From NCBI GenBank assembly GCA_012813795.1, contig GCA_012813795.1_4087.1: 64,000 nucleotides of DNA; one strand, written 5' to 3'. Within the stretch, counting starts at the first letter, position 1, and each line of letters begins with the position of its first letter. The position numbers and the translations under genes are program-made. Below, one piece after another: positions 25,727 through 47,775 of this stretch. This DNA comes from a phage. The notes under the pieces were generated by a model. That model was not told where the DNA came from. It did not search any database and worked only from the letters and a program-made list of their open reading frames with translations.

Positions 25727-25753
25727 TTTATATTCTCCAGTGTTATTGGAACT

Positions 25754-27241: not shown

Positions 27242-27267
27242 CCATATGGACAGGGCATAAACCCTAA

Positions 27268-28161: not shown

Positions 28162-28171
28162 TCGCTTTCCC

Positions 28172-29250: not shown

Positions 29251-29470
29251 ATGGACTTTTGCGGTTCATCACCCAAACAACAAATAGTAACCAAATCACA
29301 AAACCTAATATACGCAATGCAAAGTCAATATCAGTGTTAGTTCCACCATTATATTGGTAAATGATGGATGGAATCAAAGCAACTACAATTGTGATTAAGG
29401 TCATAAGAGCGAATACAACACCTTCAACGATGATTTTCACTTGTTCCCATATAGTTTTAAGATGTTCCAT
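29216..29470 (-). CDS. hypothetical membrane protein
   Basis: 84 aa with two hydrophobic helices. Confidence 0.45.
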   Translation of the reverse strand: MEHLKTIWEQVKIIVEGVVFALMTLITIVVALIPSIIYQYNGGTNTDIDFALRILGFVIWLLFVVWVMNRKSPYEQDEKSDNEY

Positions 29471-30036
29471 TACATGTCCTCTGAACCGATTCTAACCAAT
29501 TTCTGTTCATTATAGAAATCGCAGAAATCACCTTTCATGTATTTGATTTTAAGATTGCGTGTGCCTACCAGACGACGCAAACGACGCTTAACTGCACTCA
29601 GATCAGTTGAGAAGTTAAGATACATACCACCGACTTTACCTGGTACATCTGGTACGTACAGGTAATATGCATATTCCATTACCAGTCGTTGCTGGAACTG
29701 TTTCAGTGCAGCTTTGTATTCATCGAGGTTTTCAAAAAACACAGCATAGCATTCGGATTTACCCCACGGTGTACGTTTAAACATGCGGAAGTATTCATAA
29801 TTATCCCAATTCTCTTCTGTTGGATTGGGATTCACACATTCCAATGATGCGTCGGATTGACCACCTGATTTCCAAACTTCTTTCAAACCATTTTCAAAAA
29901 CAAAAAGAGTTGCCTCTTTACCACGGAAATGTTTTCTGTGCTTAGATAGTACTTGAATATGATTGCGTTTATGGTGATACATTTCATGTCCAATGTATTC
30001 ATCACTGTATTCACAAATCTTTTCACATCCAGCCAT
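29470..30036 (-). CDS. hypothetical protein
   Basis: 188-aa ORF. Confidence 0.5.
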   Translation of the reverse strand: MAGCEKICEYSDEYIGHEMYHHKRNHIQVLSKHRKHFRGKEATLFVFENGLKEVWKSGGQSDASLECVNPNPTEENWDNYEYFRMFKRTPWGKSECYAVFFENLDEYKAALKQFQQRLVMEYAYYLYVPDVPGKVGGMYLNFSTDLSAVKRRLRRLVGTRNLKIKYMKGDFCDFYNEQKLVRIGSEDM

Positions 30037-30059
30037 TTTTATTTTACCTTTTTGTTTAA

Positions 30060-30260
30060 TTAAAAGACGAGAGTATTATCACACACTCTCGATATATTGT
30101 CAATCTTCTTTTTTGACTTCTTCATGTAACCCGTATCGTGGGTCATATCGGTCATAAGTAGTACCGTTAGTACTGGCCTTAATGCTTTCAGTACGATTGA
30201 TTGGTTCAATCGATACACCACGATAACCAATCTCTTCTTTGAACTGTTTCCAGGATTCAC
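30060..30260 (-). CDS. hypothetical protein
   Basis: 66-aa ORF. Confidence 0.35.
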   Translation of the reverse strand: MNPGNSSKKRLVIVVYRLNQSIVLKALRPVLTVLLMTDMTHDTGYMKKSKKKIDNISRVCDNTLVF

Positions 30261-30428
30261 TCAGACTCATTTTGTCCCCTTATTATTTCATACACTCGCG
30301 TAGATCAATCTTTTCAACTGAACCACCAAGTACTAGATAGTAAAAATTAGAATCTTTATTAGCCATATTCAGAAGATCTGCTTTCTGTTGAAGTGTAAAG
30401 CGTGATGTACTGTTACGCACTGGCATAG

Positions 30429-30868
30429 TTACTCCTTAAAGTAGATATCACGAATTTGTTTAATCATCTCTAACTCTTGAAGTCCTATCATACCAAAGTC
30501 TTCTTGTATTGTCAACTGCTGAAAGTACATTTCTTCTAAATTATTGTACGGAATCCCAACAAGATTCAAAGGCTCACTTTCCACACGATATATTGTATCT
30601 TCTACGTCATGCTTTTCAATGTGAATACTAAATGTATCTTTTTGAATTCTAAATTTATAAAATGTTTGATTTGATGTAAACAATCCAACTTTAGGATGGA
30701 ATCCCATTTGAATACACAAACAATCTTCATCGTTATATTTCAGGTATATAGTTTTTGACGTTGCCAGTACTTTAGACTTTGGGTAGTAAAAGTCCCCCAT
30801 CTCCTTCTGGCGTAGCCAATCATTATAAACTACCGGATGTTTAACTTTCTTTAATTGGTGCAGTACTG

Positions 30869-30884
<16 letters not shown>
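30429..30884 (-). CDS. EE-x-FFQ motif family protein
   Basis: C-terminal NLEEMYFQQLTIQEDFGMIGLQEL. Confidence 0.5.
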
Positions 30885-32257
<1,373 letters not shown>

Positions 32258-32272
32258 TTGTGCCTCTGATGG

Positions 32273-34171
32273 TTAAAAGAATATATCACGTAGTAAATGT
32301 TCTATAACAGGTGCTGTCCAGCCATTACCAAGCATTTTGTACGCTTGTGTTGAACTACTAACTTTGAAGTAGTTTACATCAATTCCTTGCAACATGCAAC
32401 ACTCTTGTACTGTTAAATGACGATAGTCCACATTTCGTTTACCCTTCTCAATCAGGAAGTTCCTGTTGATATCAGGGTCTTTGAAAACGATTTGTCTTCT
32501 TGACTTATTGAAGTACTGATTCGGATCTCCACCCTTGAAGTAGTTTGCGTCAATGCAATATGATTTATCACGATCAGTATACCAATTACCAGTTAGTATA
32601 TCTTGTAATTTTGGTGCTAAAATAAGAGGTTTTGGAATAAACAACTTATCCGAGCTATACCAGTAGTAACGTTGGCGATAATGTGCTGTATAATTTTGTG
32701 AATTTATCAAAATTGGTGTCATTTCCAACACGCCATTGATATAATCCTTGAAATCTTCCTTCATCTTAACATTCTCAAAAAGAACTTTCAAGTTAGGATT
32801 GAGACTTTTTATGTGCTGGTAAATATCAACCATTGTATGGAATAACATACCACGAGGATCATTCACACCGCCTTGTTTCCCAGCAACTGACCACGCTTGG
32901 CAGTTATGAACTACAATATTGTTCGCCGTATATGTGTTATCTACTGCAACTTCAATATTGTAAACGGTTTTCCATTCTCCGGTTGTGGTGTTCGATTTAA
33001 CACCTTTTACCCATGAATATGACCCATCATCATAGAATGCTTCATCTTTTCGGTGCTTTTCTTTTTTGTATGTTAATACGTAATACGGCTTCTGATTAAC
33101 AACACGTTCTTCTATAACTTTTGTTTCAGACGGTTTAAAGTATGTTATGTTAGAATGACGACCATACACATTCATAATTAGTTGTTGTATACCAAGAATA
33201 ACATTCTTTGATGTTGATGTAAATTTTAAACAATCATCTTTCTTGTCATGGTGACCATCTGCGTCAAAATAACCATCAATGAATGCTTTCTGATTAGCGA
33301 TACTTTCAGTGAAAAGTGTGGGGTGTACTTGTTTATTTGAAGCACCCTTACCCATTTGTTCACAAAATTCAACTAGTTCTTTTGAACAAATATAGAATTT
33401 ATAAGATGTTCTTTCTTTAACAAAATTATATTTCATATTCATACCATCAAAACATGAAACCAATTCATCAAATTCATCATGAGCACAGCAAATAAAAACA
33501 CGATATTGATAACTATTTTTTCTATTTTGTCGTTTTACTTTGTAAGTCCATCCATCACCCATAAATCTACCCATGAAATACCAAAAGCTTTCACTCTTGT
33601 TATGTTGAAAATTCACATTACAACGAACATTACATATAGCATGTTCTTCTGTGAGTTCATGTGCATCGATCCATGTAGGTTCTGTATATTCACGAACATA
33701 TTGTCGTTTTTCATTATCCCACTTCTTGCTCATTTTTCTCGCATAAAATGGATGATTATCAGTGCATTCAATTGGTATATGTCCCTGACCTGTGATGATT
33801 CTTGTTGGTGCAATCTTGCTACCAATACTCAATACTTTTTGGTATTGTCCAGTGTGTGTAAGAACCATATCACCAATTTTTATATCTTTTATATCTTTAT
33901 GACCTTCATTTGTCATGATCATGGTTCCTGCTGGGAAGCAAGGAAAACCACCCATCAGAAGATCTATCTTGTCCCATTCGATATCCCATTCTTTCCATCT
34001 AGTTACATCACCCAATTGGATGATATCAGGAAAGTTAGCCTGGGATTCAGCTATAGCAAATTTATCAATTTCAGATGAGTAGTACTTTTCAACTGGTATT
34101 CCTGCACTTTGCAAGGCCATATACCCAACACTCATCCCATTGAATAGTGATAGTACACGTATCGGTTCCAT
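32273..34171 (-). CDS. DNA (cytosine-5)-methyltransferase interrupted by an in-frame intein
   Basis: Motif I LFNGMSVG, then GGFP | intein | CQAWSVAG restores the catalytic PCQ motif; ENV motif follows. Confidence 0.85.
   Translation of the reverse strand: MEPIRVLSLFNGMSVGYMALQSAGIPVEKYYSSEIDKFAIAESQANFPDIIQLGDVTRWKEWDIEWDKIDLLMGGFPCFPAGTMIMTNEGHKDIKDIKIGDMVLTHTGQYQKVLSIGSKIAPTRIITGQGHIPIECTDNHPFYARKMSKKWDNEKRQYVREYTEPTWIDAHELTEEHAICNVRCNVNFQHNKSESFWYFMGRFMGDGWTYKVKRQNRKNSYQYRVFICCAHDEFDELVSCFDGMNMKYNFVKERTSYKFYICSKELVEFCEQMGKGASNKQVHPTLFTESIANQKAFIDGYFDADGHHDKKDDCLKFTSTSKNVILGIQQLIMNVYGRHSNITYFKPSETKVIEERVVNQKPYYVLTYKKEKHRKDEAFYDDGSYSWVKGVKSNTTTGEWKTVYNIEVAVDNTYTANNIVVHNCQAWSVAGKQGGVNDPRGMLFHTMVDIYQHIKSLNPNLKVLFENVKMKEDFKDYINGVLEMTPILINSQNYTAHYRQRYYWYSSDKLFIPKPLILAPKLQDILTGNWYTDRDKSYCIDANYFKGGDPNQYFNKSRRQIVFKDPDINRNFLIEKGKRNVDYRHLTVQECCMLQGIDVNYFKVSSSTQAYKMLGNGWTAPVIEHLLRDIFF
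32903..33940 (-). mobile_element. intein with LAGLIDADG homing-endonuclease domain (residues 78-423 of the methyltransferase ORF)
   Basis: Starts with Cys (CFPAGTMIM), TDNHPF block, two LAGLIDADG-like motifs (FMGRFMGDGW, AFIDGYFDADGH), ends VVHN then extein Cys. Confidence 0.8.
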
Positions 34172-34370
34172 CTATAATCCTTTATAAAATAAAATACTGG
34201 ACGAATATTCGCCCAGTATTGTCCTTTTTAATACTATTTAAAACTTATGTGGATTTCTCTTTTTAAGACCATCCAGTACATCAGTAGGTAGAATTTCACG
34301 GAATGACCCCACTGGGATAAGGATCATTACATATTTCAATTGGAGTTTCCTCGTTGTATAAGATTGATTA

Positions 34371-34399
34371 ATTGTATAATATTATTGCTCCATTGTCAA
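34371..34399 (-). promoter_or_regulatory. sigma70-type promoter upstream of methyltransferase gene
   Basis: TTGACA-N17-TACAAT on minus strand; a second TTGACG-N17-TATAAT lies at 34443..34471. Confidence 0.45.
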
Positions 34400-34457
34400 G
34401 CAAAATATAATTCCTTATACATTCTTTCTCTCTGATACAAACATTATATCTCCTAAT

Positions 34458-34748
34458 TTAGAAATCGTCAATACTTTTTTCTTGACACCATCGGGCAGTA
34501 CAGATGATTGCCGATGCAAGGATTGAAGCACTAGCACGACCACCGCCTAATATGTACTGACTGACCACACCAATCATATTGAACACTTTATCACTCTCGG
34601 ACAGTTGTTCAAAATCCTTTTTCCAAAATTCATATTCTTCGTCTGAAACTTCAAATTCACTACCCATATCATTTAAAATCTTTTTTAGTACTGCACTATG
34701 TTCACTCATCTTTATCACCATAACGTTCGTCGTAGTAATCATCATCAC
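34458..34748 (-). CDS. hypothetical protein
   Basis: 96-aa ORF. Confidence 0.45.
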   Translation of the reverse strand: MMMITTTNVMVIKMSEHSAVLKKILNDMGSEFEVSDEEYEFWKKDFEQLSESDKVFNMIGVVSQYILGGGRASASILASAIICTARWCQEKSIDDF

Positions 34749-34785
34749 GGTCTAATGGTTCTTTTGGTTTTTCGCTCATATTTCC

Positions 34786-35046
34786 TCACATGGTAAACGT
34801 GTTATCACCATCCATGTCTTCATCAGTTGCTTCTGCTAAGGTCTTGATAGTTAATAATCCACGCTTCACATACAACATGAAAACCTTTTCATAATTACCA
34901 AACATGATTTCCGGTGACATGTAATTTTCTGTTACAATGACAATTGGTCGCCCCTGTGTCAGCATACGAAACATAGTGCGATATTTGTCAAATGTACGGA
35001 ATTCATCCATGTTCATCATGTGGCGTTTACGAACTACTGTAGTCAC
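34786..35046 (-). CDS. hypothetical protein
   Basis: 86-aa ORF. Confidence 0.45.
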   Translation of the reverse strand: MTTVVRKRHMMNMDEFRTFDKYRTMFRMLTQGRPIVIVTENYMSPEIMFGNYEKVFMLYVKRGLLTIKTLAEATDEDMDGDNTFTM

Positions 35047-35050
35047 TGTG

Positions 35051-35473
35051 TTACCCTTTCAATTGTTTCTCGATATGGAATGTATTGTATATCTTGTTGT
35101 ACACAGTGTCAATAATTTTCTTAACGTCTGCTAACTCTTCGACAGTTGTGCACACATCACTGATAGTACTTAACTGAAACAACTCTTCTTCAGTACTGTA
35201 CAGTGTTATATCAAATTTGTTGCGAAGTTCATCTTCGATAACGTATTGATTTGTGACAGTATATGATGCAATTTCAACATCCAACAACTTATCACCTTCA
35301 AAAACATTATAAATGAACACAAATGTTAGTTCTTCACTCTCATCATCACTGTAGCTTATATATACATTGTAATTTTCACCATGAAAATCAAGATTGTGCT
35401 CAAACCTATTATCAGGTACTAGTGAATCTATAGGCATTCCCTTTAACAAATCAAAACAATCTCTTGGGTTCAT
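35051..35473 (-). CDS. EE-x-FFQ motif family protein
   Basis: C-terminal STEEELFQLSTISD. Confidence 0.55.
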   Translation of the reverse strand: MNPRDCFDLLKGMPIDSLVPDNRFEHNLDFHGENYNVYISYSDDESEELTFVFIYNVFEGDKLLDVEIASYTVTNQYVIEDELRNKFDITLYSTEEELFQLSTISDVCTTVEELADVKKIIDTVYNKIYNTFHIEKQLKG

Positions 35474-35910
35474 TTTACATCCATTTGTCGCTGTTCATCA
35501 ATAAAAAAGATGTTAAAGATAGCTGAACGCATTTTTGTTAGCGTACTCATGAGATATTTTAAATCCTTGAAATCAATATTAAATGTTTGAACCAGTGATT
35601 CCTGGAAATACCCCTCTTCAGTAGTGCATTCACTTACATTTTGTACCTGATATATTTTGATAATATTATCATCACGAAGCATAATTTCTAAGTTATTGTT
35701 ATTAACATTGTGCACGATATACATCTGATCACCATATACCAGATTATTAACTGATAATGATAATACATTATTTTCAATAATAATCTTAAAGCAATTCTGA
35801 CCTACGTATGTGGTATTTTTAATTTGTTCTTCAGGATCAGTCAAACCATCGTTGATAAATTTAATTTTATTAAAAGTACTGATATATTTTTTAACTAATT
35901 TAATGTTCAT
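35470..35910 (-). CDS. EE-x-FFQ motif family protein
   Basis: C-terminal TTEEGYFQESLVQTF. Confidence 0.55.
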   Translation of the reverse strand: MNIKLVKKYISTFNKIKFINDGLTDPEEQIKNTTYVGQNCFKIIIENNVLSLSVNNLVYGDQMYIVHNVNNNNLEIMLRDDNIIKIYQVQNVSECTTEEGYFQESLVQTFNIDFKDLKYLMSTLTKMRSAIFNIFFIDEQRQMDVK

Positions 35911-36287
35911 TGCTTTACCTTAGATAGAGCATAATTCATTATTGACTTGATTTTTTGTAAATTGTCATATGACATTACATGTTTTTCAATTAATGATAGT
36001 TGAAATAATTCTTCTTCAGTTGAATTCAAGTAAACTTCTGAACCATCATAATTTTCAAAATCATAAAGGTATGAAAGACGGTCATCTATATACCAACCAA
36101 TCCATTCAATGGTGTTTCTTTCTTTGAAAACACAAGTATATGGATTATCTCTTGAATCTAAGGTTATGGTTAAACGTAAACATGAATTTGATTGTTGTAC
36201 ACTCTGTCTCCCATAATATACAGTAACCTCATCGGTTTCAATTGATTTATACAAAGCATCAATTTTTCTATCCAATTCATCTACCAT
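35907..36287 (-). CDS. EE-x-FFQ motif family protein
   Basis: C-terminal STEEELFQLSLIEKH. Confidence 0.55.
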   Translation of the reverse strand: MVDELDRKIDALYKSIETDEVTVYYGRQSVQQSNSCLRLTITLDSRDNPYTCVFKERNTIEWIGWYIDDRLSYLYDFENYDGSEVYLNSTEEELFQLSLIEKHVMSYDNLQKIKSIMNYALSKVKQ

Positions 36288-36691
36288 AATCTTACCCTTT
36301 TCAATGCTTTAACTTCGTCAGTGCACGGGAACACAACGAATCCAGTTAATGTTAGACCATCAAAATGGTTGAATCCATAATCATGAATCTTAGTTGCAGT
36401 GAATCCTTCAGCTTTCACTTTATCGAATAGATTAAGCATCTGTTCTTCAGATTTAGCCTTTAAGATAATCTTGCGGCGACCGTCCTGTACCCAAGTACTG
36501 AAATCGTTCAGGATCTTTTCATCTTCATCTCTTGGGTTCTCACCAACAGCATTACAACCACGAATTGATGTACCAGCAACTGTAACCGTGGACCAGATAG
36601 AATCAACCGCATGACCCGCCTGAGCAGCAAGCTTCCCAACTGGCATATCTAAGTCTTCACGAATGATTATGTAACATTTACTTACTGTCAT
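36281..36691 (-). CDS. pth2: peptidyl-tRNA hydrolase, PTH2 family
   Basis: IIREDLDMPVGKLAAQAGHAV and KIILKAKSEEQMLNLFDKVKAEGF match remembered PTH2 core motifs. Confidence 0.75.
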   Translation of the reverse strand: MTVSKCYIIIREDLDMPVGKLAAQAGHAVDSIWSTVTVAGTSIRGCNAVGENPRDEDEKILNDFSTWVQDGRRKIILKAKSEEQMLNLFDKVKAEGFTATKIHDYGFNHFDGLTLTGFVVFPCTDEVKALKRVRLW

Positions 36692-37103
36692 CTACAATCT
36701 CCTTTTCATATTGCTCAAGTATCGAATAGATCTTATTGGAAATGTCCAATGTTTTAACATAATCACAGTACCTGATACACCCAAAATCATACAAAGTACT
36801 AACCATAAAGAATTCTTCTTCAGAGTACTTCTTTTCATTGAATGTAATGGTATTTGTAATTTTTCCAGATTCTGAATATTTTACATAGATAATACTACCA
36901 TTACTTATGTAATCTAATGTCTCTGAATACTTTTCAATACTAGAACTATGTCTAAATTGAATTCCTACAGATTTATCATACCAAAGAGATTTATTTCCGT
37001 CAGTAAGTATAGCATAATCAATCTTACGTTTATCATTGACACACATACCACAATCGGTAATTTTTAGTTTAGTGATATCAATATTCAACAGATCACTTAT
37101 CAT
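36678..37103 (-). CDS. EE-x-FFQ motif family protein
   Basis: C-terminal SEEEFFMVSTLYDFG. Confidence 0.5.
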   Translation of the reverse strand: MISDLLNIDITKLKITDCGMCVNDKRKIDYAILTDGNKSLWYDKSVGIQFRHSSSIEKYSETLDYISNGSIIYVKYSESGKITNTITFNEKKYSEEEFFMVSTLYDFGCIRYCDYVKTLDISNKIYSILEQYEKEIVDDSK

Positions 37104-37527
37104 CCAATTCTCCGAATTTGGTTAGAGCAAACACTTTTGCCTCATCATGCAGTTTGTGAATTAGTATGATATTATCATATGTTAAATCTAGTACATTGTC
37201 AACAAGTGAACGTTGAAATAGTATCTCTTCAGATGTGATTTCATGGATGTTTTCTATCTTAATTTCATTGAATGTATCAGTTTCATTTTCTCGCGTACTC
37301 ATGATCAACGTACCACTCGTTGAAATGTATGATATCTTGGTATCCACACCATCAATGGTTGCGTACAGGCGAATTATTTCATATGAATCAGTTAATCTTA
37401 CATTAACCTTAATTTCATCCTCTGTACAAAACCACACACTTTTAGCAAAGAAATTGACACGTACTTTCATATCTTTAAGTTTATTATTTTGGAAATATTT
37501 TAGTACTTTTTTGAATGATATAATCAT
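37093..37527 (-). CDS. EE-x-FFQ motif family protein
   Basis: C-terminal TSEEILFQRSLVDNVLDLTYDNI. Confidence 0.55.
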   Translation of the reverse strand: MIISFKKVLKYFQNNKLKDMKVRVNFFAKSVWFCTEDEIKVNVRLTDSYEIIRLYATIDGVDTKISYISTSGTLIMSTRENETDTFNEIKIENIHEITSEEILFQRSLVDNVLDLTYDNIILIHKLHDEAKVFALTKFGELDDK

Positions 37528-37544
37528 ATGTATCTCCTTTAGTA

Positions 37545-37940
37545 CTATATCGCATAGTACTTAAATAATGTTTTTAGATCATCAATAGTGAATGGTAAAT
37601 CCTCCAAAAGCAACTGTTGAAAGTAATGCTCTTCGTCAAGATACTTATGTATATTGATGAATGATTTTCTATGATAATCCGCTTTCCATGTAGGTCTTGT
37701 ACCCTTAGTATATTCAGTGAATACAATTTTGTCCATACCATAATCATACACGAATTCATTCTTTTCTGCAACCCCCTGATACTTTAGTTTTACCGGTTCT
37801 TTGCTGATAGAAAATTTATGCTCAGATGATTCATAATAGAATGATGATTGCTGATATTTTGATAAATCAATCTTTGAAAAATCATTTAGATAATAAGAAA
37901 GTTTAATTGTGACGATGCTGCCTATTCGACGACCCAACAT
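37545..37940 (-). CDS. EE-x-FFQ motif family protein
   Basis: C-terminal DEEHYFQQLLLEDLPFTIDDL. Confidence 0.55.
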   Translation of the reverse strand: MLGRRIGSIVTIKLSYYLNDFSKIDLSKYQQSSFYYESSEHKFSISKEPVKLKYQGVAEKNEFVYDYGMDKIVFTEYTKGTRPTWKADYHRKSFINIHKYLDEEHYFQQLLLEDLPFTIDDLKTLFKYYAI

Positions 37941-38089
37941 ACTTTTATCCTAATATAAAAAATGCCCCTGGGAGGGGCAGTACGAAAAGATATAAAATGT
38001 ACAATAAGAAATGGAAAATATAATAAATTAATTTTATTATAGAAGGGAGGAAAAATAACATAATAATATGTTAGCCATTACTGGCATAA

Positions 38090-38641
38090 TTATTTATCAT
38101 TAAGCTCTTTTAATTTAGTCTGAACATCTAGTGTTAATTTTCTTAGTTTCTTAAAGACAAAAGCACTGTCATCTAGTTCAAGTTTCATACCATGTGTAAT
38201 GGCATAAAGAACTTCAGCTTTAGCCAAATCATGACGCATCCAATTACCATTCTTATAGAGAGTCATTACACAAAAAGGGCAAACACTTTCAGATGTTTGA
38301 TGACCAATAAAAACGGATTGTATCGTATCATGTTGGAAATTAATAAATGACTCGTTAATTTTTTGAATTTCTGCAATTACATCAAGTTTAGCATCCGTAT
38401 TAATAGCAAAAATATTGTTCCCGTTGTCATCAGTATTGATGTTTAGCTCTATATCAGAACCTATTTTGCGTACTGCCATTGTATAAAGCAATAACTCATA
38501 CATGTCATATGACGTTACATCACCGCTTGGTGCAGTAACGTTAAGGTTAACACCGTGATGTGTAACTTCAGTACTGAATCCTTCTTTATCTGCTAGGAAA
38601 TTTACAATTTGGTTCGTGAATTTTTGAATTTGTTCGATCAT
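38090..38641 (-). CDS. hypothetical protein
   Basis: 183-aa ORF. Confidence 0.5.
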   Translation of the reverse strand: MIEQIQKFTNQIVNFLADKEGFSTEVTHHGVNLNVTAPSGDVTSYDMYELLLYTMAVRKIGSDIELNINTDDNGNNIFAINTDAKLDVIAEIQKINESFINFQHDTIQSVFIGHQTSESVCPFCVMTLYKNGNWMRHDLAKAEVLYAITHGMKLELDDSAFVFKKLRKLTLDVQTKLKELNDK

Positions 38642-38718
38642 ATTAAGTACTCCTTTACTTTGTCTTATTTAACAAATGAATATAAGGCTCCCGATTGAGA
38701 GCCTTATTTCTTTTTATA

Positions 38719-39156
38719 TTATGCGGTTTCTTCTTCGAACTTAGCGACGATATCAACCATTTCATTGATTAGTTTGATATGGTCATAAGTTACTGAACGG
38801 AAATCTACAACAAGTGACTGTTGGAAGAATTCTTCTTCTGGCAACCCACCATCAAAGTTGAGATCAACATTCTCATCATCATTAGTTGGTGCAACCTTGA
38901 TGTTGAAACTATTTTCATCAACAACCAGTTTAACTACACAACCCAAGCAGATAGATAGTACATATGCTGGTTTCTTAGCTGCTTCTTTACGGAAAGGTGC
39001 ACGAAGAGCACATACTACGCTACTAATTTCATCACCTTCTTCTTTATATTTGACGGTAATCATTAGCTCTTCAACTTTAATCGCTTCAATTACACGAGAA
39101 GGGTTTTCTGCGAAGAATGGGTTGTTACGGATTACTTGTTCAAGATTCATATTCAT
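38719..39156 (-). CDS. EE-x-FFQ motif family protein
   Basis: C-terminal PEEEFFQQSLVVDFRSVTYDHI. Confidence 0.55.
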   Translation of the reverse strand: MNMNLEQVIRNNPFFAENPSRVIEAIKVEELMITVKYKEEGDEISSVVCALRAPFRKEAAKKPAYVLSICLGCVVKLVVDENSFNIKVAPTNDDENVDLNFDGGLPEEEFFQQSLVVDFRSVTYDHIKLINEMVDIVAKFEEETA

Positions 39157-39347
39157 TCCTTATTCATATCACTAAAGTTACGGAGATTGCGATTAGCTTT
39201 GAATTGTTTCAAATCACTGAATCGGTCATCAACCAAAAATGTTGCTGTTTCTGTTGCCTGACATGTTGTACAAACTAACATACCTTGTATTGTATACGCT
39301 GTATTGCAATTTGTACAGTACTTTTTTTCAATCAACTCGACGTTCAT
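39153..39347 (-). CDS. small zinc-ribbon protein
   Basis: CTNCN ... CTTCQ (two CxxC pairs). Confidence 0.45.
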   Translation of the reverse strand: MNVELIEKKYCTNCNTAYTIQGMLVCTTCQATETATFLVDDRFSDLKQFKANRNLRNFSDMNKE

Positions 39348-39679
39348 AAAACCTTCACATCACTACGTTTATTTCGTGCGTCTTTCTTTTCCTCATCAGT
39401 TCGTGTATCATCTAATTGTAACACAACTTCTTTAAGAATGTCAACATCAATTTCAGCTTCTACGTAATGAAAGTCATTGCGACCAAAAACATACTTCACT
39501 GCAACCCATACACGCTTGTACCATTTAAGAAAAGGATTCAAACGCATACTGACTGTACATTGACCAAGTTTATCATCACCGTGTTCTTCTGTCAAGTCAA
39601 ATTGTGCAATGTGAACACAATGTTCATTTTTATCACCACAAGTACAACGCAACATAAACTCTTTGCTATCTTTACTCAT
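39344..39679 (-). CDS. hypothetical Cys-rich protein
   Basis: 111-aa ORF. Confidence 0.45.
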   Translation of the reverse strand: MSKDSKEFMLRCTCGDKNEHCVHIAQFDLTEEHGDDKLGQCTVSMRLNPFLKWYKRVWVAVKYVFGRNDFHYVEAEIDVDILKEVVLQLDDTRTDEEKKDARNKRSDVKVL

Positions 39680-40137
39680 ACTGGATATGCCTTTTCAAAC
39701 GATTTCAGAACACCAAACTTAGCAGCATCGTAATCAAATTGATAACTCAATTCACGATTTTCATTCATACGATATACCATATGAAAGTTTGGATAACCAA
39801 TTCTAACAGGTTTATTAGAATTAGCAAGGAGAATTGCCCATTCTTTTACAGGGAACACATTTTCCTGTAACATTTTAAGATTACGTTCAAAGTACTTCAT
39901 AGCTTGTGTGCCAATCTTGTATTCTTGTTCAGTAATCTCATCAATCTCTACACTTTTGGATTCTAAATCAAAAACCCAATTGTTATCTTCGTAGTATAAA
40001 TCTTTTACATCATCGATGGTATATGAATCTGGAAGATCATAAAAAATCCACGCTGATGCCCCTGAACTGGTAATGATACGAATTTTATAATACTTCATCA
40101 CGATCCTCATTACTGTTAATGTAATAGTAACAGACAA
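39676..40137 (-). CDS. hypothetical protein
   Basis: 153-aa ORF; likely start at MKYYKIRI; promoter 40221..40249 upstream. Confidence 0.5.
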   Translation of the reverse strand: MSVTITLTVMRIVMKYYKIRIITSSGASAWIFYDLPDSYTIDDVKDLYYEDNNWVFDLESKSVEIDEITEQEYKIGTQAMKYFERNLKMLQENVFPVKEWAILLANSNKPVRIGYPNFHMVYRMNENRELSYQFDYDAAKFGVLKSFEKAYPV

Positions 40138-40220
40138 TACAGTGTATTACCAATAAAATTAGTTCTATGATGTTAAGCATAACCACATGTGATTGTGGGA
40201 ACACCAGAGCCAATATCAAC

Positions 40221-40249
40221 ATTATAGTTGGAATGACGAATATTGTCAA
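40221..40249 (-). promoter_or_regulatory. sigma70-type early promoter
   Basis: TTGACAATATTCGTCATTCCAACTATAAT on minus strand (17-bp spacer). Confidence 0.5.
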
Positions 40250-40263
40250 CTCTTTTTTCATGT

Positions 40264-40545
40264 TTATTCCTTAATATATGCATACGGCATAAAAACAACT
40301 TCAGCACCATCTACAGTATCAGCTATCACCTTAACAATACTTTCATTTTTGTTACATTGCCATACTTTTGTTATTTTATGCCTGAATACATTTCCATCTT
40401 TGACAATCCAGTACATGTTCATTTTAACAGTGCTTTCTTCACTTGGCACTAAAAGTTCATTTATTGGGGTTGCATCAAATGTTAGTTTGTTCATTTTTAT
40501 ATAAATCCAAAACATATTGTCCAAAATAAAGCTCAATAGCATCAT
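40264..40545 (-). CDS. hypothetical protein
   Basis: 93-aa ORF. Confidence 0.45.
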   Translation of the reverse strand: MMLLSFILDNMFWIYIKMNKLTFDATPINELLVPSEESTVKMNMYWIVKDGNVFRHKITKVWQCNKNESIVKVIADTVDGAEVVFMPYAYIKE

Positions 40546-40822
40546 TTACCATTTGAACCTCATTGCGATATATACCATTTCCACCACACACAGAACACAA
40601 ACACTGATACTGTGGTGTTTTTATTATAACACGACCAGCAGAAAATGACCTTATATCTTTTGCATAGTTCATCTCCATATATTCAAGTTCAAGAGTATGA
40701 TCTACATCCTTATTGTAACATATCCAACAAGTTCTTGAATGATTCATATCAGTTGAACCCCCATAAATGTGCAAATGAACTGTCATTTCTAACCAATTCT
40801 TTTGCATACGAACTAATTGCAT
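40475..40822 (-). CDS. small Cys-rich (zinc-ribbon-like) protein
   Basis: CWIC ... CSVCGG pairs; overlaps neighbouring ORFs so start is uncertain. Confidence 0.4.
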   Translation of the reverse strand: MQLVRMQKNWLEMTVHLHIYGGSTDMNHSRTCWICYNKDVDHTLELEYMEMNYAKDIRSFSAGRVIIKTPQYQCLCSVCGGNGIYRNEVQMVNDAIELYFGQYVLDLYKNEQTNI

Positions 40823-41024
40823 TCACAACCATAATATTAACACAATTCAACTCATGAAGAACAAGTTCATTACCACATAATGAACAAGATGTACTATAAA
40901 ATGGTGTTGGTAATTTTATATAGCCACCTCTTAATGGAAAGACTTGTTCCTCTATTGTCAACATTGTATCAGACGGAGTGACAAACATCTCACATTCAAG
41001 ACAACAAATTTTCACTTTATCCAT
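40749..41024 (-). CDS. small Cys-rich (zinc-ribbon-like) protein
   Basis: CCLEC ... CSLCGN pairs. Confidence 0.4.
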   Translation of the reverse strand: MDKVKICCLECEMFVTPSDTMLTIEEQVFPLRGGYIKLPTPFYSTSCSLCGNELVLHELNCVNIMVVNAISSYAKELVRNDSSFAHLWGFN

Positions 41025-41511
41025 TATTCATCTCCTTCAGTACAGTTCTGATATCCTCAAAGGTCTGAACAAACCAGCGGTGTTCATCACTAACATCAAT
41101 GATCTTACCACTATACAAATAATAATGCTCAAACTTCAGAGTACTTTTACGCAATCGTTCAGCAAGTTCAGGATTCTGCATTATTTTAGCACATATCGCA
41201 TCCTGGATTACATTTAATCGCTCAGGTGTCATCTCTATACGGTCATGCATATATGTGTTTGCAGCGGCTTTCGCTGCGGCTCCTGACACCTTTCTAAGTT
41301 CTTCATGCTGTTGTCCAGTGAGGAACCAGAAATAAAAAGACTCAACCGAAGGAAACCATCCATATGGTTCTAGTGTAAAGCTATGGGGAGAAAAATTAGA
41401 TAAATCTCTCCCTAGCTTAGTTTTCCCTTTACTGTAGATATTGATATGCGTGTATCCATCTTCAGTACAGTCAATGTAGTTTTTTGGTTGTTCATCAGGA
41501 AATTCAAACAT
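41017..41511 (-). CDS. NADAR/YbiA-like protein (possible ADP-ribose-processing enzyme)
   Basis: INIYSKGKTKLGRDLSNFSP ... PSVESFYFW resembles the remembered N-terminal core of E. coli YbiA. Confidence 0.55.
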   Translation of the reverse strand: MFEFPDEQPKNYIDCTEDGYTHINIYSKGKTKLGRDLSNFSPHSFTLEPYGWFPSVESFYFWFLTGQQHEELRKVSGAAAKAAANTYMHDRIEMTPERLNVIQDAICAKIMQNPELAERLRKSTLKFEHYYLYSGKIIDVSDEHRWFVQTFEDIRTVLKEMNNG

Positions 41512-41864
41512 TATTCTTCATCACCTGATGGTGTTCCGCGTAGTTTATCAAAATCTACCCAAATACCATGCTCATTTTTAAAACGACACTTACCATAGTA
41601 CCAGCTATAGTCAGTTTCGACACCTTGTGAATATGAGCGAACGCTACAATCATACATACCATAGAGATGGCCTTTTACACAGTATGTTCCAAATAACATA
41701 ACAACAAAAACAACGGCTGCACTGATTTTAGGAAAATCCATAACTAAATCGATAACAGAATTTTCTTGATGATTATCAATTTTAGAACGAATAGTTGAAA
41801 TAGTTTTCAGTACTAATACTGCTACAACCAATGAAACCAAAAGCACACATAAGTAAATCAACAT
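41511..41864 (-). CDS. hypothetical membrane protein
   Basis: 117 aa with two TM segments. Confidence 0.5.
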   Translation of the reverse strand: MLIYLCVLLVSLVVAVLVLKTISTIRSKIDNHQENSVIDLVMDFPKISAAVVFVVMLFGTYCVKGHLYGMYDCSVRSYSQGVETDYSWYYGKCRFKNEHGIWVDFDKLRGTPSGDEE

Positions 41865-41865
41865 A

Positions 41866-42414
41866 TTATTCTCCTAACATTCTTAATACATTAGAAATAA
41901 AGAACACATCAAATGGTTCTTTTGGATTTGCTACAGAATGCTGAAATGCATATTCATGAAAATTTTCACGGTCTAACCAATCTTCATTATTAACTAACAT
42001 TTTTTTCTCACCAAGAATCACACTATGTATAGATGTGAAAGATTCTGTTGATATGGTATATCCAACCAATGTACCTTTTTTAGTGAAATCGAAAGTACCA
42101 AAATAATTTCGGGTATATTGTCTTGTTCTATTTTCAAACATTCTTGCAATATTTTCTTTGTATGGATCAGAATATGGCTGACGATATATGGGGTCTAAAG
42201 ATCCAAACATTTCTATTTTAGATTGCAGGGTTATTAAATTATCCGTGATAAAAAAATGAACGCCTTTATATTCGAAATCCTTCTTACGATTATATGAAAA
42301 TACTGATACATCCCACTCTGATATTACCTGAACGAACTCATTAACACCTCTTTCCAGATCGGGGAGATATGGTAGATCTTTATTATCGTATTGCATGTTT
42401 ATAATCCTTTTCAA
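41866..42414 (-). CDS. hypothetical protein
   Basis: 182-aa ORF. Confidence 0.5.
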   Translation of the reverse strand: MKRIINMQYDNKDLPYLPDLERGVNEFVQVISEWDVSVFSYNRKKDFEYKGVHFFITDNLITLQSKIEMFGSLDPIYRQPYSDPYKENIARMFENRTRQYTRNYFGTFDFTKKGTLVGYTISTESFTSIHSVILGEKKMLVNNEDWLDRENFHEYAFQHSVANPKEPFDVFFISNVLRMLGE

Positions 42415-42964
42415 GATTTAATACTTCTAAAATACTAAATTTATTGGAACCCTCAATGTCTTTAATAAATGCATCTGGATTGTCTTCTAATGAATATATT
42501 TCACCATTGATAAGCGTTTTTTCATGTAGAATCATAGCTGACATAATCTTATTACCCATAGATTCTTTCTCAGGCGTTGTACCATTACTATTGGTGAAGT
42601 AAATGAAGTTACTTGGTAGTTCACTCCACTCAACTGATATGATATTTTTCATAGCTGTTGTTGTACAAACTTTAATATAACGCTCAATAATCGTATTGGA
42701 TGAAGTTGCCGCAATTGTCATTGGATGACCGTGGGCAATATTTACACCGCTTGGAACTGCGATAGATGATGATATATTTGGAACATTGGATTCAATTTTA
42801 GGTTCTTTTATCCCTAAAATAAATTCATAATGACGAGCATGATGCTTCATTTTAAAAATTATAGTATCTGATTCAAAACTATAAGGAAGAATTATATTAT
42901 CATATGCACGCTTTTTGATTTCTGCTATACGCTCGAACAACTTAAGAGTTTCATTATAAAACAT
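42383..42964 (-). CDS. hypothetical protein
   Basis: 193-aa ORF. Confidence 0.5.
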   Translation of the reverse strand: MFYNETLKLFERIAEIKKRAYDNIILPYSFESDTIIFKMKHHARHYEFILGIKEPKIESNVPNISSSIAVPSGVNIAHGHPMTIAATSSNTIIERYIKVCTTTAMKNIISVEWSELPSNFIYFTNSNGTTPEKESMGNKIMSAMILHEKTLINGEIYSLEDNPDAFIKDIEGSNKFSILEVLNLEKDYKHAIR

Positions 42965-43013
42965 AGTTTATATCCTATTAAAAAGGGAGTACATTATTGT
43001 ACTCCCCAAATAC

Positions 43014-43568
43014 TTACAATTTAATTACTTCCTGAATACCAGTTTCCATTGCTTTCTTAGTGCGAGTATCAGAAACGACAGTACACAAATGTTCAATATC
43101 TTTACTTGGGAATGTATTAGAATCGATGATTTTTGAGTTCCAGAATCCTTTACGGAATTTCTCATAATCAGTACATTGTTCAATTTTCATTTTCTGCAAG
43201 TTATTGAACTTCTCACGCCCTGCATCAATTGTAACCATCAACTCTTGATAAATCTTAGGATCAAGATTTGGAACTTGTTGTTGAATCTGTGACATTACAA
43301 ATTTCTGATCAACTCCTTCACGTCCCTTAAAGTACGCTTCGATTGTCTCTTTCAATGCATCCTTATATTTGTCCGATACTTGAACCTTTTCTTGAATAGT
43401 TAGTGTATAACTACTCAGTTGACTTTCAGATGCATCGTAGTACTTTTTAATATTACCTTCAAAATTCACTGCACTATCATGTACTGAACTATACATACTT
43501 ACAGTTGCAAACACACCAATAACAAAAATCACCAACATACCAACCAACAAAATCATAGGCTTATTCAT
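43014..43568 (-). CDS. membrane-anchored helical protein (possibly LemA-like)
   Basis: 184 aa; N-terminal TM helix then helical domain; LemA resemblance is weak. Confidence 0.35.
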   Translation of the reverse strand: MNKPMILLVGMLVIFVIGVFATVSMYSSVHDSAVNFEGNIKKYYDASESQLSSYTLTIQEKVQVSDKYKDALKETIEAYFKGREGVDQKFVMSQIQQQVPNLDPKIYQELMVTIDAGREKFNNLQKMKIEQCTDYEKFRKGFWNSKIIDSNTFPSKDIEHLCTVVSDTRTKKAMETGIQEVIKL

Positions 43569-44701
43569 ACATTATTTTCCTTCATATAAAGACCAACAAC
43601 AATCGACAGTACAATGAGAATCAAAGATGCAGCAATCATAACATCTTTTCGTGGTTCCATTTTAACTGCCATGTATTCAAACTCTTTATTAGACAGACGT
43701 TCAAACTTAGTCTGTATATTATGAACCTGAACTTTAAGTAAGTCAAGTGTTAATACTTCATTTAACGCATCCATTCGCATTTTAGAATGCAATTCTTCAT
43801 TATTCATACCTTTAGCGAATGACGTACTATTGAATGATTTAACGACACCATCATTACTGATACCAAAGAACATAATCACATCGTTCTTCTTGCCACCACG
43901 CCAGATTGAGGTTACTGCATCAACAAAATTCACGTCATGATAATCATATACTAGTACTTGAATGTTTACTTGCTTTTGTGCACCTAATGTTTTTAACACT
44001 TCACGTAAATATTCATCATACCCACTCACATCGTAATCAGTTTTATTAATAACGTGGTGTGTTTTATAATAATCACTAATACTTGGATATTCAGGTAAAG
44101 ATTCCAGATATTCTTTATCATACATAGAAATCAAATCTTCAGTACTGAATAATGAGTGTTTATCTGCAAATAGATAATTTATGTATGTGTTTTCTGCTGC
44201 TGCATAATCACCATTTTTCACTTCTTGCCAGCGTGGTGGAGTTTGTGTTCCTTGTCTATTGACCCTTTCAATCTCAAACTTACCAACAGTGCTTTTAACG
44301 TACCAATCAATCTCATACGGATAGTCGAATACCTTATAAGATTCACATTCACGTTGTGAGCGACCTTTAGAATCATAGGTAGTCCAGCAACGCTCATGCC
44401 AAGTATAGTGTTTACAAGAACTTGATTGTGATGTGCAGTTCTCACGTTGGCTGTATTTCTCTGTAACCTGACCATTTAGAATTTCAACATCACGAAGTTG
44501 GCTGTAGTTTATCAAGTATGATGTTCCCAATACCAACACCGCTGCAAGAAAGCAAATTCCAGTATGAATTAGCAATTCCTTTGTTGTTATGGCAGTATGG
44601 TATTTGAACTTCATGATTAGAACAACTATCAAACTTGGTATTAGAAGAATTGCTAAGTTCATTGTGTTACCTTTAATAGTTCCCGCGTTCGTTGATTGCA
44701 T
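43565..44701 (-). CDS. hypothetical membrane protein
   Basis: 378 aa with N-terminal and C-terminal TM segments and a Cys-rich middle. Confidence 0.5.
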   Translation of the reverse strand: MQSTNAGTIKGNTMNLAILLIPSLIVVLIMKFKYHTAITTKELLIHTGICFLAAVLVLGTSYLINYSQLRDVEILNGQVTEKYSQRENCTSQSSSCKHYTWHERCWTTYDSKGRSQRECESYKVFDYPYEIDWYVKSTVGKFEIERVNRQGTQTPPRWQEVKNGDYAAAENTYINYLFADKHSLFSTEDLISMYDKEYLESLPEYPSISDYYKTHHVINKTDYDVSGYDEYLREVLKTLGAQKQVNIQVLVYDYHDVNFVDAVTSIWRGGKKNDVIMFFGISNDGVVKSFNSTSFAKGMNNEELHSKMRMDALNEVLTLDLLKVQVHNIQTKFERLSNKEFEYMAVKMEPRKDVMIAASLILIVLSIVVGLYMKENNV

Positions 44702-45374
44702 TTAAGCAATATGAAACCTGGATAGCTTCACGTGCTGCATCGAATAATGGGTGGTGAAGTTCTAGACCATAAAGACCATGATCAGCAACCATCTCCACAA
44801 ACTTTTTCAATTGTACATCAACAATGGAATCCATGTCAAATTTTTCATCTTCAGTTAGGCGATTCTTAACACTTCGGGCATTCTGTGGTGCATTATATTT
44901 CCACAATTCGCCCACACCAAACATTTTACGATGGTTTGCTTGAAGAATACTACAATCGAAGTGGCAGCCATTACCCCAAATTTCAATATTGTTCTCATTT
45001 CCATTAAGATCATAACGAAGTGAATTCCACAAATCAAGTACATTTTTTGTTTTATACAAATTGTTCTGACTACCGGAAATAATCTCAGGATCTGTCAACG
45101 TGAGTGTGCTAACTACTTCTTCATATGCACCTTTATGATCATTTTGACACATATTCATCCAAAAGTTCATTGAACCTGCATCAACTTTAAGACCAGCATC
45201 AATTTGTTTTTGGAATGGTAGTTTAACATATGCATAACGTGAGATATCTTTCATTGGGTTAGTTGGAACTAAAACAATTGCGTAATTTGGAATGATAATA
45301 TCATAACCACTACGTTCTGGAGTTCCGAAAGATTCAATATCAACTGCATAGTGTGTAACTTTATCTGCCATCAT
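44673..45374 (-). CDS. DEDDh 3'-5' exonuclease (T4 DexA-like)
   Basis: Exo motifs AVDIESFG, WGNGCHFDCSIL, HHPLFDAAREA; size about that of T4 exonuclease A. Confidence 0.65.
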   Translation of the reverse strand: MMADKVTHYAVDIESFGTPERSGYDIIIPNYAIVLVPTNPMKDISRYAYVKLPFQKQIDAGLKVDAGSMNFWMNMCQNDHKGAYEEVVSTLTLTDPEIISGSQNNLYKTKNVLDLWNSLRYDLNGNENNIEIWGNGCHFDCSILQANHRKMFGVGELWKYNAPQNARSVKNRLTEDEKFDMDSIVDVQLKKFVEMVADHGLYGLELHHPLFDAAREAIQVSYCLNAINERGNY

Positions 45375-45439
45375 ATTATCCTTAGATAATTAATAAAATA
45401 TGTGCCCATTATACAATGGGCACATTTATATGTCAACTA

Positions 45440-46567
45440 TTACTTGTTAGCTTTGTCAGCAATTTCGCGAAGAGTTTCTTCAAGTTCGTAGGACAACTGT
45501 GCAATTTCATGTTTAGCACGTTCACGTTCTTCCTTACCTTTCTTCTCTTCAATCAGTACTGCTTCGATGCTATCAATCATTGTTTTGTGTACGTTACGCA
45601 ATGTTTTAATATCCACAATACCACGGTTATTAGCTTTAGCAGCATCTAACATATTAGTTGCTACCATTTTGGAGTTCACTTCAAGTAAACGGTTAGTTTC
45701 ATTATCAATCAAATTACCCAACTCGTTATCTTTGCGTTGGCGTTCAGAAATCAATTGTTCTGCTAGTTGTGATTTCCATGCAGGGATGACAACAGATTTC
45801 AGATCTTCAAATTTAGATACAGTGTTTAGATTCACTTTCTTCATACTCATCAGACGAGGGCCACTAAGCTCACACATCATGATAAGACGGCGAATCTTAT
45901 CTTCCTGTTTAGACAATGCTTCACAAATCATCTTCTGCTCTTGGATTGCGAAAGAATCCACATCAGGGTTCGCTTGCATTTCTTCCAGTTTAGCATCTTG
46001 AGTTTTTGTGACTTGTTCCAATTCAACCAGCGTATCGCGTAATTCAAATAGATAGGCTTTATTCTCATTGTAAGCAGTATCCAACCACTCACATTCACTA
46101 TGTTGGCGATTGATACCAACCTGGAGTGTGTTCATGATTTCATCAATCTGCTCTTTACTATTCTTGTACTGATCACCAACTTTCTGTTTTGCATTGACAA
46201 AGAGTTTTTTGACCCAACCTACAATTGATTTATCATCTTGTAGACTGTCAATATCAACAGCACGGGTTAGGGATAAAATTGTGGTAATTGATTTACCAAA
46301 TTCAGTATTGTCATCAGTGACGTTCACTTTTGACATGATTTCATCAGCCAAACGTCCTACACCTGCACCAGCAGTTGTTCCAATGGTGTTAATGTTCTGA
46401 ACAGTTAAAGACATAGTGTTACCTTTTGTATCTTTCAGTACAGGTAACGTTTTAGCCTGTTGGTCGAAAATATCACTCGCATCAAAAGTATTACCTTTGG
46501 TTTTGGTTGTAGTACGCTTAGTAGTTTTGGTAGTTGCTTTTTTTGGGTTGATTTCTTTCTCGGACAT
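45440..46567 (-). CDS. hypothetical coiled-coil protein
   Basis: 375-aa ORF; Thr/Lys-rich N-terminus. Confidence 0.5.
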   Translation of the reverse strand: MSEKEINPKKATTKTTKRTTTKTKGNTFDASDIFDQQAKTLPVLKDTKGNTMSLTVQNINTIGTTAGAGVGRLADEIMSKVNVTDDNTEFGKSITTILSLTRAVDIDSLQDDKSIVGWVKKLFVNAKQKVGDQYKNSKEQIDEIMNTLQVGINRQHSECEWLDTAYNENKAYLFELRDTLVELEQVTKTQDAKLEEMQANPDVDSFAIQEQKMICEALSKQEDKIRRLIMMCELSGPRLMSMKKVNLNTVSKFEDLKSVVIPAWKSQLAEQLISERQRKDNELGNLIDNETNRLLEVNSKMVATNMLDAAKANNRGIVDIKTLRNVHKTMIDSIEAVLIEEKKGKEERERAKHEIAQLSYELEETLREIADKANK

Positions 46568-46615
46568 TAGGTTAATTCCTCATTTAATTTAAGATAGTGT
46601 TGCTCTGTGATAAAC

Positions 46616-46644
46616 ATTATACGAGCAACACACATTCATGTCAA
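46616..46644 (-). promoter_or_regulatory. sigma70-type early promoter
   Basis: TTGACATGAATGTGTGTTGCTCGTATAAT then GTTTATCA on minus strand. Confidence 0.55.
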
Positions 46645-46653: not shown

Positions 46654-47775
46654 TTACTCTTTATCACCGTAAGCTAAGTTGCGAATGATAGCTGCGGTAT
46701 CAGCGTCTACTGCTTTTCCAACTTGTGTCTGTAATCGATTGATAATCAACGGAATAGTAATAGTTTGGATATCTACCATTCTATTCATGTCAATCTGATA
46801 CTGTTTACTCACATTAACTATACTAGCTTCAGTCATTGCGGCGGTAATGCTCATTTTCATGATACGTTCAAGAGTCAGTTCATATTCAAATGCATCATCC
46901 AAACGACGAATAGCATACTCACACCCAATTTTTCCGTATTCTAATTCATCTTTAATATCACGAACTTCAGTTCGAATTTCATTAAACAATGAAGTTAAAC
47001 CACTAAACTTATTCGTATCATATTTCACTGCATCATTCAATGCTTTCATTACTTTCGGTAAATCGGCCTGTTGAACCTTTATATCCGCTTTACCAAACAG
47101 TTTTTGTGTAAATGTTGGTTTCAATGGGAATAACGATTCAAGTGCAGTGGTTAAGTTATTCATTAATGTTCTAACATAATCACTATGCTTATGTAATGCA
47201 TCATTAAGATCCAATTGACGCTCTGAAATTTTTTGAATCTTCACACCAACTTCCTGTGCACATACTGGTAAGTTTACGAACCAATCCAGTACTTTTACAG
47301 AATCCTTTTTAATAGTTTCAGGAAATTCCATCCATTGTTCGATATCCGCAATGCGTTCATCTTCTGGATCAATTGGTGTTTTAGTCAGAACAATTGGTGC
47401 TGGCACTTCAACCACTGCAAGTTCTGGACGTGGTTTAAGACGACCTTCTTTCCATGCTTCGTATTCACGCTCAAGTGGAGGTACTGGCAAATCACGAATC
47501 TGAATATTTTTAAAATGAATTTCATCTTTCATGAGATCTAACATATTCAAACGTGTGTTTGAATAGTAAATTTTTGATAGTTCTAAATTACGAACATCAA
47601 ATTCGGGATTTCCCATTGAATCATAAGTACGTTTTACGATTACATTATAAAAGTACTTTTTATTGTCGCGACGATCATACTTTTTCAGTAATGAATTCAA
47701 CACAAACTGGTAATCAAACTCTTGGATTTCAATTTCTTGTTTGTTCTCAATGAAAAAATATTTTCCTTTCATCAT
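46654..47775 (-). CDS. hypothetical protein
   Basis: 373-aa ORF. Confidence 0.5.
   Translation of the reverse strand: MMKGKYFFIENKQEIEIQEFDYQFVLNSLLKKYDRRDNKKYFYNVIVKRTYDSMGNPEFDVRNLELSKIYYSNTRLNMLDLMKDEIHFKNIQIRDLPVPPLEREYEAWKEGRLKPRPELAVVEVPAPIVLTKTPIDPEDERIADIEQWMEFPETIKKDSVKVLDWFVNLPVCAQEVGVKIQKISERQLDLNDALHKHSDYVRTLMNNLTTALESLFPLKPTFTQKLFGKADIKVQQADLPKVMKALNDAVKYDTNKFSGLTSLFNEIRTEVRDIKDELEYGKIGCEYAIRRLDDAFEYELTLERIMKMSITAAMTEASIVNVSKQYQIDMNRMVDIQTITIPLIINRLQTQVGKAVDADTAAIIRNLAYGDKE

Follow-up and report, generated by a model that had tools for sequence, protein, structure and literature searches.

The LemA and TPM families of prokaryotic membrane proteins are very widespread, and their molecular roles are still unsettled. 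For TPM domains, a chaperone-like action on membrane-linked complexes and a partnership with PspA have been proposed (PMC11237479), the TPM subunits of a respiratory supercomplex have an adapter role (PMC13456599), and the phosphatase role of these domains has been doubted in the literature. Furthermore, an sppA mutant under envelope stress induces lemA as well as a TPM gene (PMC13236525). The two families also meet in gene order. In Thermotoga, a gene for a TPM_phosphatase overlaps the end of lemA, whose product is known as PDB entry 2ETD, and in Thermincola (L031/L032, positions 4001..7812) lemA is followed by genes for a TPM-motif protein, NfeD, and the flotillin-like FloA, which constitutes a membrane-microdomain context.

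Here, we analyzed two overlapping phage genes, A and B, which very probably represent a divergent LemA-TPM pair of fused architecture, organized as a conserved early-type cassette. The pair is not a new kind of system, as B is already named LemA in a few GenBank records and one relative of A has a precomputed, stored match to the Pfam TPM family (PF04536). A full-text literature search found no paper describing the phage pair. What is new here is the recognition of both proteins together as a viral LemA-TPM cassette that has a distinct architecture and is widely and strictly conserved.

Two coupled membrane-protein genes of a jumbo coliphage

The window, i.e., the whole stretch of 64,000 nucleotides (nt) that was analyzed, belongs to an Asteriusvirus-type jumbo coliphage. 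Across positions 42900-45400, it shares 97.6% identity with Escherichia phage A4 and 72% with Klebsiella phage RaK2, and the records of these two phages likewise annotate both genes of the pair. A previous sequence-only reading had described a coupled pair of membrane-protein genes next to an exonuclease gene, and this arrangement was found as claimed. The negative strand carries open reading frames of 378 (43565..44701) and 184 (43014..43568) amino acids, and the stop codon of A and the start codon of B share the ATGA within GTATGAAT, which accounts for the 4-nt overlap. The adjoining upstream gene on the same strand (44673..45374, 233 amino acids) encodes an Rv2179c-like 3′-5′ exoribonuclease domain (Pfam PF16473, E value of 1.6e-8; PHROG 255, exonuclease).

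The true start of gene A is probably the ATG at position 44662, yielding a protein of 365 amino acids with three transmembrane (TM) segments and a TPM domain (43565..44662, negative strand; PHROG 2087, E value of 3e-127), and not the start of the longest frame at 44701. In support of this, an AAAGGT Shine-Dalgarno sequence is located 6 nt upstream of this ATG, aligned homologues start at the same position, and the A4 and RaK2 genes are annotated with a length of 1098 bp. The ATG lies 10 nt beyond the exonuclease stop codon, and the 13 additional residues of the 378-residue frame overlap the exonuclease gene. Gene B (43014..43568, negative strand) encodes a bitopic LemA-like protein of 184 residues (PHROG 1383, E value of 1.4e-65) with 776 representative homologues. 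Both A and B are real genes and not chance reading frames, as evidenced by the PHROG matches, the hundreds of homologues, and the mostly synonymous differences between the B genes of the window and phage A4. While gene A differs from its A4 counterpart in only 4 of 366 codons, gene B differs in 43 of 185, 33 of them synonymously and 10 nonsynonymously. An approximately 300-bp patch inside gene B (43200..43500) is only 82-88% identical to A4, compared with 98.9% in the surrounding 18.5 kb, and looks like a local recombinational allele swap within the LemA-like gene.

The sequence-only reading placed TM segments at both ends of the larger protein and a Cys-rich region in its middle. Hydropathy analysis of the 378-residue frame bore out the first part, with helices at residues 11-36, 40-67, and 350-376, i.e., two at the N terminus and one at the C terminus. 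The cysteine cluster was present as well (residues 89, 96, 105, and 119 of the longer frame); however, it occupies an N-proximal position within the ectodomain and not the exact middle, and one further cysteine lies within TM2. In the numbering of the 365-residue protein, with all coordinates on the negative strand, an N-terminal TM hairpin (residues 2-20 and 27-54; 44501..44659), supported by hydropathy, AF2 helices, and family charge statistics, contains a short basic loop that is predicted to be cytoplasmic. It is followed by a beta-rich ectodomain (residues 57-161; 44180..44494) containing Cys 76, 83, 92, and 106, a TPM domain (residues about 204-320; 43703..44053) with the motif W-x-GGKKNDV, and a C-terminal TM helix (residues 339-362; 43577..43648) defined by hydropathy, AF2, and family charge statistics. 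Sequence profiles assigned the ectodomain of about 105 residues to no recognized family and detected no relatives of it. Family members mostly contain 7 or 5 cysteines, compared with 4 in the motif of the window protein, and the notion of disulfide parity in the ectodomain was therefore dropped.

A check for TPM had been suggested along with LemA, and the larger protein does contain a TPM domain. It shows the alpha/beta/alpha sandwich fold of TPM domains, and its AF2 model has a mean pLDDT of 92.8. The window protein itself did not match the Pfam family TPM_phosphatase (PF04536; gathering score of 22.1 bits), and the consensus of the A family reached 17 bits, which is below that score. Nevertheless, 9 of 48 relatives of A matched PF04536 singly, the best with an E value of 1.7e-6. 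The A1 profile built for gene A yielded zero matches to PDB sequences.

The smaller protein was correctly described as a mostly helical single-pass membrane protein, since hydropathy revealed one helix (residues 1-30) and the AF2 model is nearly all helix. Hydropathy, AF2, and family charge statistics place the N-terminal TM anchor at residues about 3-26 (43491..43562, negative strand), and 133 of 134 relatives of B have a single TM segment. The LemA-homologous helical domain, delineated by hhalign and hmmsearch, spans residues 21-157 (43098..43508, negative strand). The loose resemblance to LemA that had been noticed proved to be a remote similarity detectable by profile methods, whereas the window protein on its own had no Pfam LemA match at an E value of <0.1. 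Alignment of the B family with 34 LemA proteins by hhalign gave a probability of 98.0% and an E value of 2.8e-13 over 138 columns, and an hmmsearch with the B family profile matched the 2ETD sequence with an E value of 3.5e-7 (residues 29-158). The consensus of the B family scored 20.2 bits (E value of 5.4e-4) against Pfam LemA (PF04011), thus not reaching the gathering score of 26.2 bits, and 19 of 134 relatives matched PF04011 individually (best E value of 2.9e-6). Cysteines are absent from 70 members of the B family, while 49 members have two and 13 have one. It should be noted that searches of Pfam, NCBIfam, and PDB with both proteins as single sequences, and of PDB with the close-relative profile A2, returned nothing useful; the match to 2ETD required the broader family profile, built from a search of 1.84 billion proteins. 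Collectively, these profile comparisons make us confident that the product of gene B is a homologue of LemA and that the two genes form a divergent viral LemA-TPM pair.

Conservation of the pair as a phage cassette

Of 50,697 phage records searched with tblastn, 483 contained A and 482 contained B, with near-identical counts per genus. The cassette is thus carried by about 1% of sequenced phage genomes, belonging to at least eight unrelated lineages, and its carriers are large virulent phages. A and B adjoin each other, in the order A then B, in ICP1, Det7, RAY, Acibel004, phiAS5, the T5-like phage pVp-1, phiN3, and CBB. When the ±5-kb neighborhoods of the window and of all these phages except CBB were compared all against all, only A and B were common to the eight loci. 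B was the immediate neighbor of A in 21 of 27 loci with A, once with the order reversed; the order B then A was seen in one contig from a metagenome-assembled genome (MAG; L017, 356..1995). The pairwise distance matrices of A and B correlate with a Mantel r of 0.71 (0 of 5000 permutations), which shows co-inheritance of the two proteins, not necessarily contact between them.

When 185,579 species genomes were scanned in a pattern-limited manner, only 18 loci emerged, mostly on MAG contigs, and the family is therefore essentially viral. Among isolate genomes, the cassette was found only in Achromobacter anxifer (L018, 3338..6687) and Variovorax sp. WDL1 (L015). In Achromobacter, the cassette directly follows a full-length RecA gene and lies near a YqaJ-like recombinase gene and an MscS-like gene, and we suspect that it resides on a prophage or another mobile element. 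Three high-GC MAG contigs labeled Kofleriaceae, Enterobacteriaceae, and Deltaproteobacteria (L022, L024, and L025) have a homologue of A without an adjoining homologue of B.

The exonuclease gene and a TelA-like gene accompany the pair only in RaK2-like phages. The exoribonuclease gene is the first gene of the inferred operon; nevertheless, it is absent from the neighborhoods of the pair in other lineages and hence represents context and not a conserved partner. TelA was likewise dropped as a candidate third partner, since the distribution of TelA-like genes among phages differs from that of the pair and TelA is absent near the pair outside the RaK2-like phages. Upstream of the TelA-like gene (45440..46567, negative strand) lies an open reading frame of 373 codons (46654..47775, negative strand; PHROG 13312) without a Pfam match. 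A4, RaK2, and CBB, the three relatives examined for it, have the same arrangement. Each of the two genes has its own consensus promoter. The idea that the 373-residue protein is a paralogue of TelA was rejected, as BLASTP revealed no similarity. Three genes downstream of the pair, a 117-residue reading frame (41511..41864, negative strand; PHROG 8041) with hydrophobic N-terminal and central segments encodes another predicted small membrane protein within the early-type region.

Gene context also bears on a role of the pair in the timing of lysis, in which A and B would act as a holin/antiholin pair with a large ectodomain or regulate lysis from the periplasm in some other way. The T4 proteins T and RI combine a membrane protein that has a big periplasmic domain with a small bitopic helical partner, and A and B superficially resemble them in this respect. 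RaK2 lacks homologues of T and RI, and no holin has been identified in CBA120. The orthologue of A in Salmonella phage Vi01 (Vi01_203; L033, 2501..3610) even bears the gene name 'host lysis protein', a name given without evidence; the product line of the same entry instead reads 'conserved uncharacterised protein'. However, neither homology nor gene context backs a lysis role. No lipobox-containing reading frame was found in or after B, Pfam and PHROG revealed no lysis genes within ±5 kb of the pair, and the family profiles of A and B matched no holin or antiholin chains in PDB. The spanin, holin, and defense-system readings of the pair were dropped, and we regard control of lysis timing by A and B as most unlikely.

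Predicted expression, topology, and role

A perfect sigma-70 consensus promoter (TTGACA-17-TATAAT; 45408..45436, negative strand) lies upstream of the exoribonuclease/A/B unit, and an intrinsic terminator with a 10-bp stem and a T-run (42984..43007, negative strand) ends this transcription unit 7 nt past the stop codon of B. That the unit is bracketed in this manner suggests that it is expressed early. Within the window, 11 perfect TTGACA-N16-18-TATAAT promoters (2536..46644) were found, all on the negative, i.e., coding, strand, while 0.14 were expected. This excess argues that they are real and of the type used by the host polymerase early in infection, and they probably represent the early-promoter set of this genome region. 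In addition, a second promoter-like site inside the exonuclease gene (TTGACA-18-TACAAT; 44810..44839, negative strand), which matches the consensus at 11 of 12 positions, could drive A and B alone; its assignment relies on the consensus match. Terminator and promoter overlap after TelA, where the loop of the terminator hairpin (45400..45425) contains the TATAAT −10 element of the promoter that follows. In other phages, the pair adjoins genes of nucleotide metabolism and other early-type genes, not structural modules.

The window is also rich in the palindrome AGTACT, which occurs 146 times in 64 kb (e.g., at 2553, 2891, 8031, 22542, 25761, 44140, and 45554), compared with a rough composition-based expectation of about 22, and the octamer CAGTACTG occurs 34 times versus 0.59 in shuffled sequences. 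The palindromes are mostly intragenic, and some of them fall between the −35 and −10 elements of consensus promoters. The excess is common to RaK2-like relatives (30 in 18.5 kb of A4, 23 in 13.3 kb of RaK2, and 26 in 8 kb of CBB) and absent from the other phage loci compared.

The orientation of both proteins was predicted from the distribution of charges in their families. Among 45 members of the A family, the N terminus is uncharged, the loop between TM1 and TM2 is basic, the 15 residues past TM2 are acidic, and the tail after the C-terminal TM helix is basic (mean of +3.6 K/R versus 1.5 D/E). Among 133 members of the B family, the N terminus is basic (mean of +1.4 K/R versus 0.1 D/E). Following the positive-inside rule, we infer that A adopts an N-out, loop-in, ectodomain-out, C-in topology and B an N-in, C-out topology, and the soluble parts of both proteins would accordingly face the periplasm. 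Predicted topology, translational coupling of the two genes, and their strict co-occurrence support the envelope-associated two-protein module that had been proposed from the letters alone, but lend no direct support to the specific role suggested for it, superinfection exclusion. We consider it likely that A and B act together as an inner-membrane pair, even though the high-GC MAG loci that carry A without B count against this model.

The Imm and Sp proteins of T4, a virulent phage, are made early, reside in the inner membrane, act at its periplasmic side, and exclude superinfection. A and B could likewise form an early inner-membrane pair whose periplasmic domains block the entry of a second phage's genome or its penetration of the cell wall. 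Both the predicted early promoter and the predicted inner-membrane location with periplasm-facing domains are consistent with such a function, as is the presence of the cassette in virulent phages at moron-like positions among early genes. That two nearly identical phages differ by what looks like a local allele swap in B would fit conflict-driven turnover; however, the divergent patch is mostly synonymous (33:10). Moreover, the pair has no match to known exclusion or defense families in Pfam, NCBIfam, or PADLOC, descends from a ubiquitous cellular pair, and is kept at 25-40% identity across very different hosts and entry machineries, in myoviruses as well as in a T5-like siphovirus. Cellular ancestry of a housekeeping type, combined with conservation across unrelated lineages, is unlike the usual pattern of exclusion genes and suggests a generic cellular target instead of a phage-specific block. 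Superinfection exclusion is therefore, in our view, an unlikely function of the pair.

Many GenBank records and PHROG 1383 label B as a 'virion structural protein'. If this label were accurate, B could travel with the virion, at its surface or in its interior, and reach the host membrane at infection, and A could be its membrane-bound partner in assembly or reception. Indeed, 2 peptides covering 11.4% of the B homologue gp175 were detected by tandem mass spectrometry of CsCl-purified RaK2 (PMC3622015, Table S3), and 10 peptides covering 54.6% of ORF020 in Acibel004 (PMC4128745, Table S6A). The labels in Kuttervirus records probably come from the particle proteome of ViI, while the label in RAY is due to annotation transfer only. 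On the other hand, the orthologue gp143 is not among the 62 virion proteins listed for phAPEC6, the closest relative with a proteome, and the Acibel004 preparation also held proteins that are clearly nonstructural, namely an RNA ligase, a phosphoribosyltransferase, and a PspA/IM30 protein. In phAPEC6, contracted particles have a piece of host membrane on the tip of the tail, and membrane proteins could plausibly reach particle preparations in this way. Furthermore, B lies outside the structural modules and behind an early-type promoter, and it combines an N-terminal TM anchor with cellular LemA ancestry. The evidence behind the database label is thus thin, we correct the label here, and genuine association of B with the particle appears improbable. 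It should be noted that Acibel004 carries, along with the A-B pair, the PspA/IM30 family protein ORF066, which turned up alongside ORF020 in the particle preparation.

The explanation that we favor is that the phage LemA-TPM pair constitutes an early, periplasm-facing inner-membrane complex that preserves the envelope. An early promoter of the host sigma-70 type would drive A and B along with the exoribonuclease gene, and, by analogy with the cellular proteins, the two products might assemble into a complex at the periplasmic surface of the host inner membrane at an early stage of infection. If cellular LemA and TPM proteins are assumed to act together nonenzymatically on membrane-linked complexes when the envelope is stressed, in the manner of a chaperone or a scaffold, the phage pair could keep the membrane of the infected cell intact and energized while a large phage completes its long infection cycle. 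This role is favored on account of the literature on TPM adapters, on TPM proteins as PspA partners, and on the co-induction of lemA and a TPM gene. The particle preparations of RaK2 and Acibel004 yielded homologues of B and not of A, which counts against a stoichiometric inner-membrane complex. Taken as a whole, we judge this explanation to stand at slightly less than an even chance, and the envelope-maintenance function by itself, drawn from analogy, is put forward tentatively.

We also considered a reading in which B is carried with the particle, and B or the early-made pair seals or guards the channel left by genome injection, working at the entry site on the periplasmic side of the inner membrane. 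It seems to us very unlikely; if true, it would describe a phage device for membrane repair and exclusion built on a LemA/TPM scaffold and would provide the first mechanistic function for the LemA and TPM families. Beyond the choice among these roles, the carriers of the cassette include the tractable models ICP1, Det7/CBA120-type phages, and the T5-like pVp-1, as well as jumbo phages, and the compactness of the phage cassette makes the function of the pair accessible to simple deletions.

Comparison with phage and cellular systems

Among phage proteins, T4 Imm and Sp resemble A and B in predicted timing and location. However, the two systems share no sequence or profile similarity, and A and B are far more widely conserved and have cellular homologues. 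Among bacterial systems, the PspA systems of the Bacillus subtilis ydjFGHL type contain the TPM protein YdjH and the zinc-ribbon membrane protein YdjG (PMC11237479). They share with A a TPM domain, a Cys-rich membrane-anchored element, and a context of envelope stress, where the likeness to YdjG is drawn from its published description only (PMC11237479). In contrast to these systems, the phage pair has no linked PspA, band-7, or AAA+ gene in the window or in the other lineages, and the Cys motif of A comprises 7 cysteines in most family members and 4 in the window protein.

In comparison with the TPM-domain proteins of the PF04536 family, namely AtTLP18.3, Psb32, BA41/BA42, PG_0361, and Rhom172_1776, protein A has an extra N-terminal TM hairpin and the Cys-containing beta-rich domain of about 105 residues, and the window protein stays below the threshold of the Pfam TPM model. 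For B, the comparison is with the LemA family (PF04011), represented by Thermotoga maritima TM0961 (PDB 2ETD). LemA proteins of 186-208 residues, compared with 184 in B, likewise consist of one N-terminal TM anchor and a helical domain behind it, and both share the motifs Y-N-x-x-V-x-x-E near the membrane, E-N-(Y)-P-N-L, and F-P near the C terminus. B differs in that its stretch between helices 2 and 3 is shorter by about 15 residues and its C terminus longer by about 27; it also scores under the Pfam gathering threshold and belongs to a viral family. The phage genes overlap like lemA and the TPM gene of Thermotoga, with the order inverted to TPM then LemA. Together, the gene arrangements in Thermotoga and Thermincola show that the phage cassette mirrors a coupled cellular pair.
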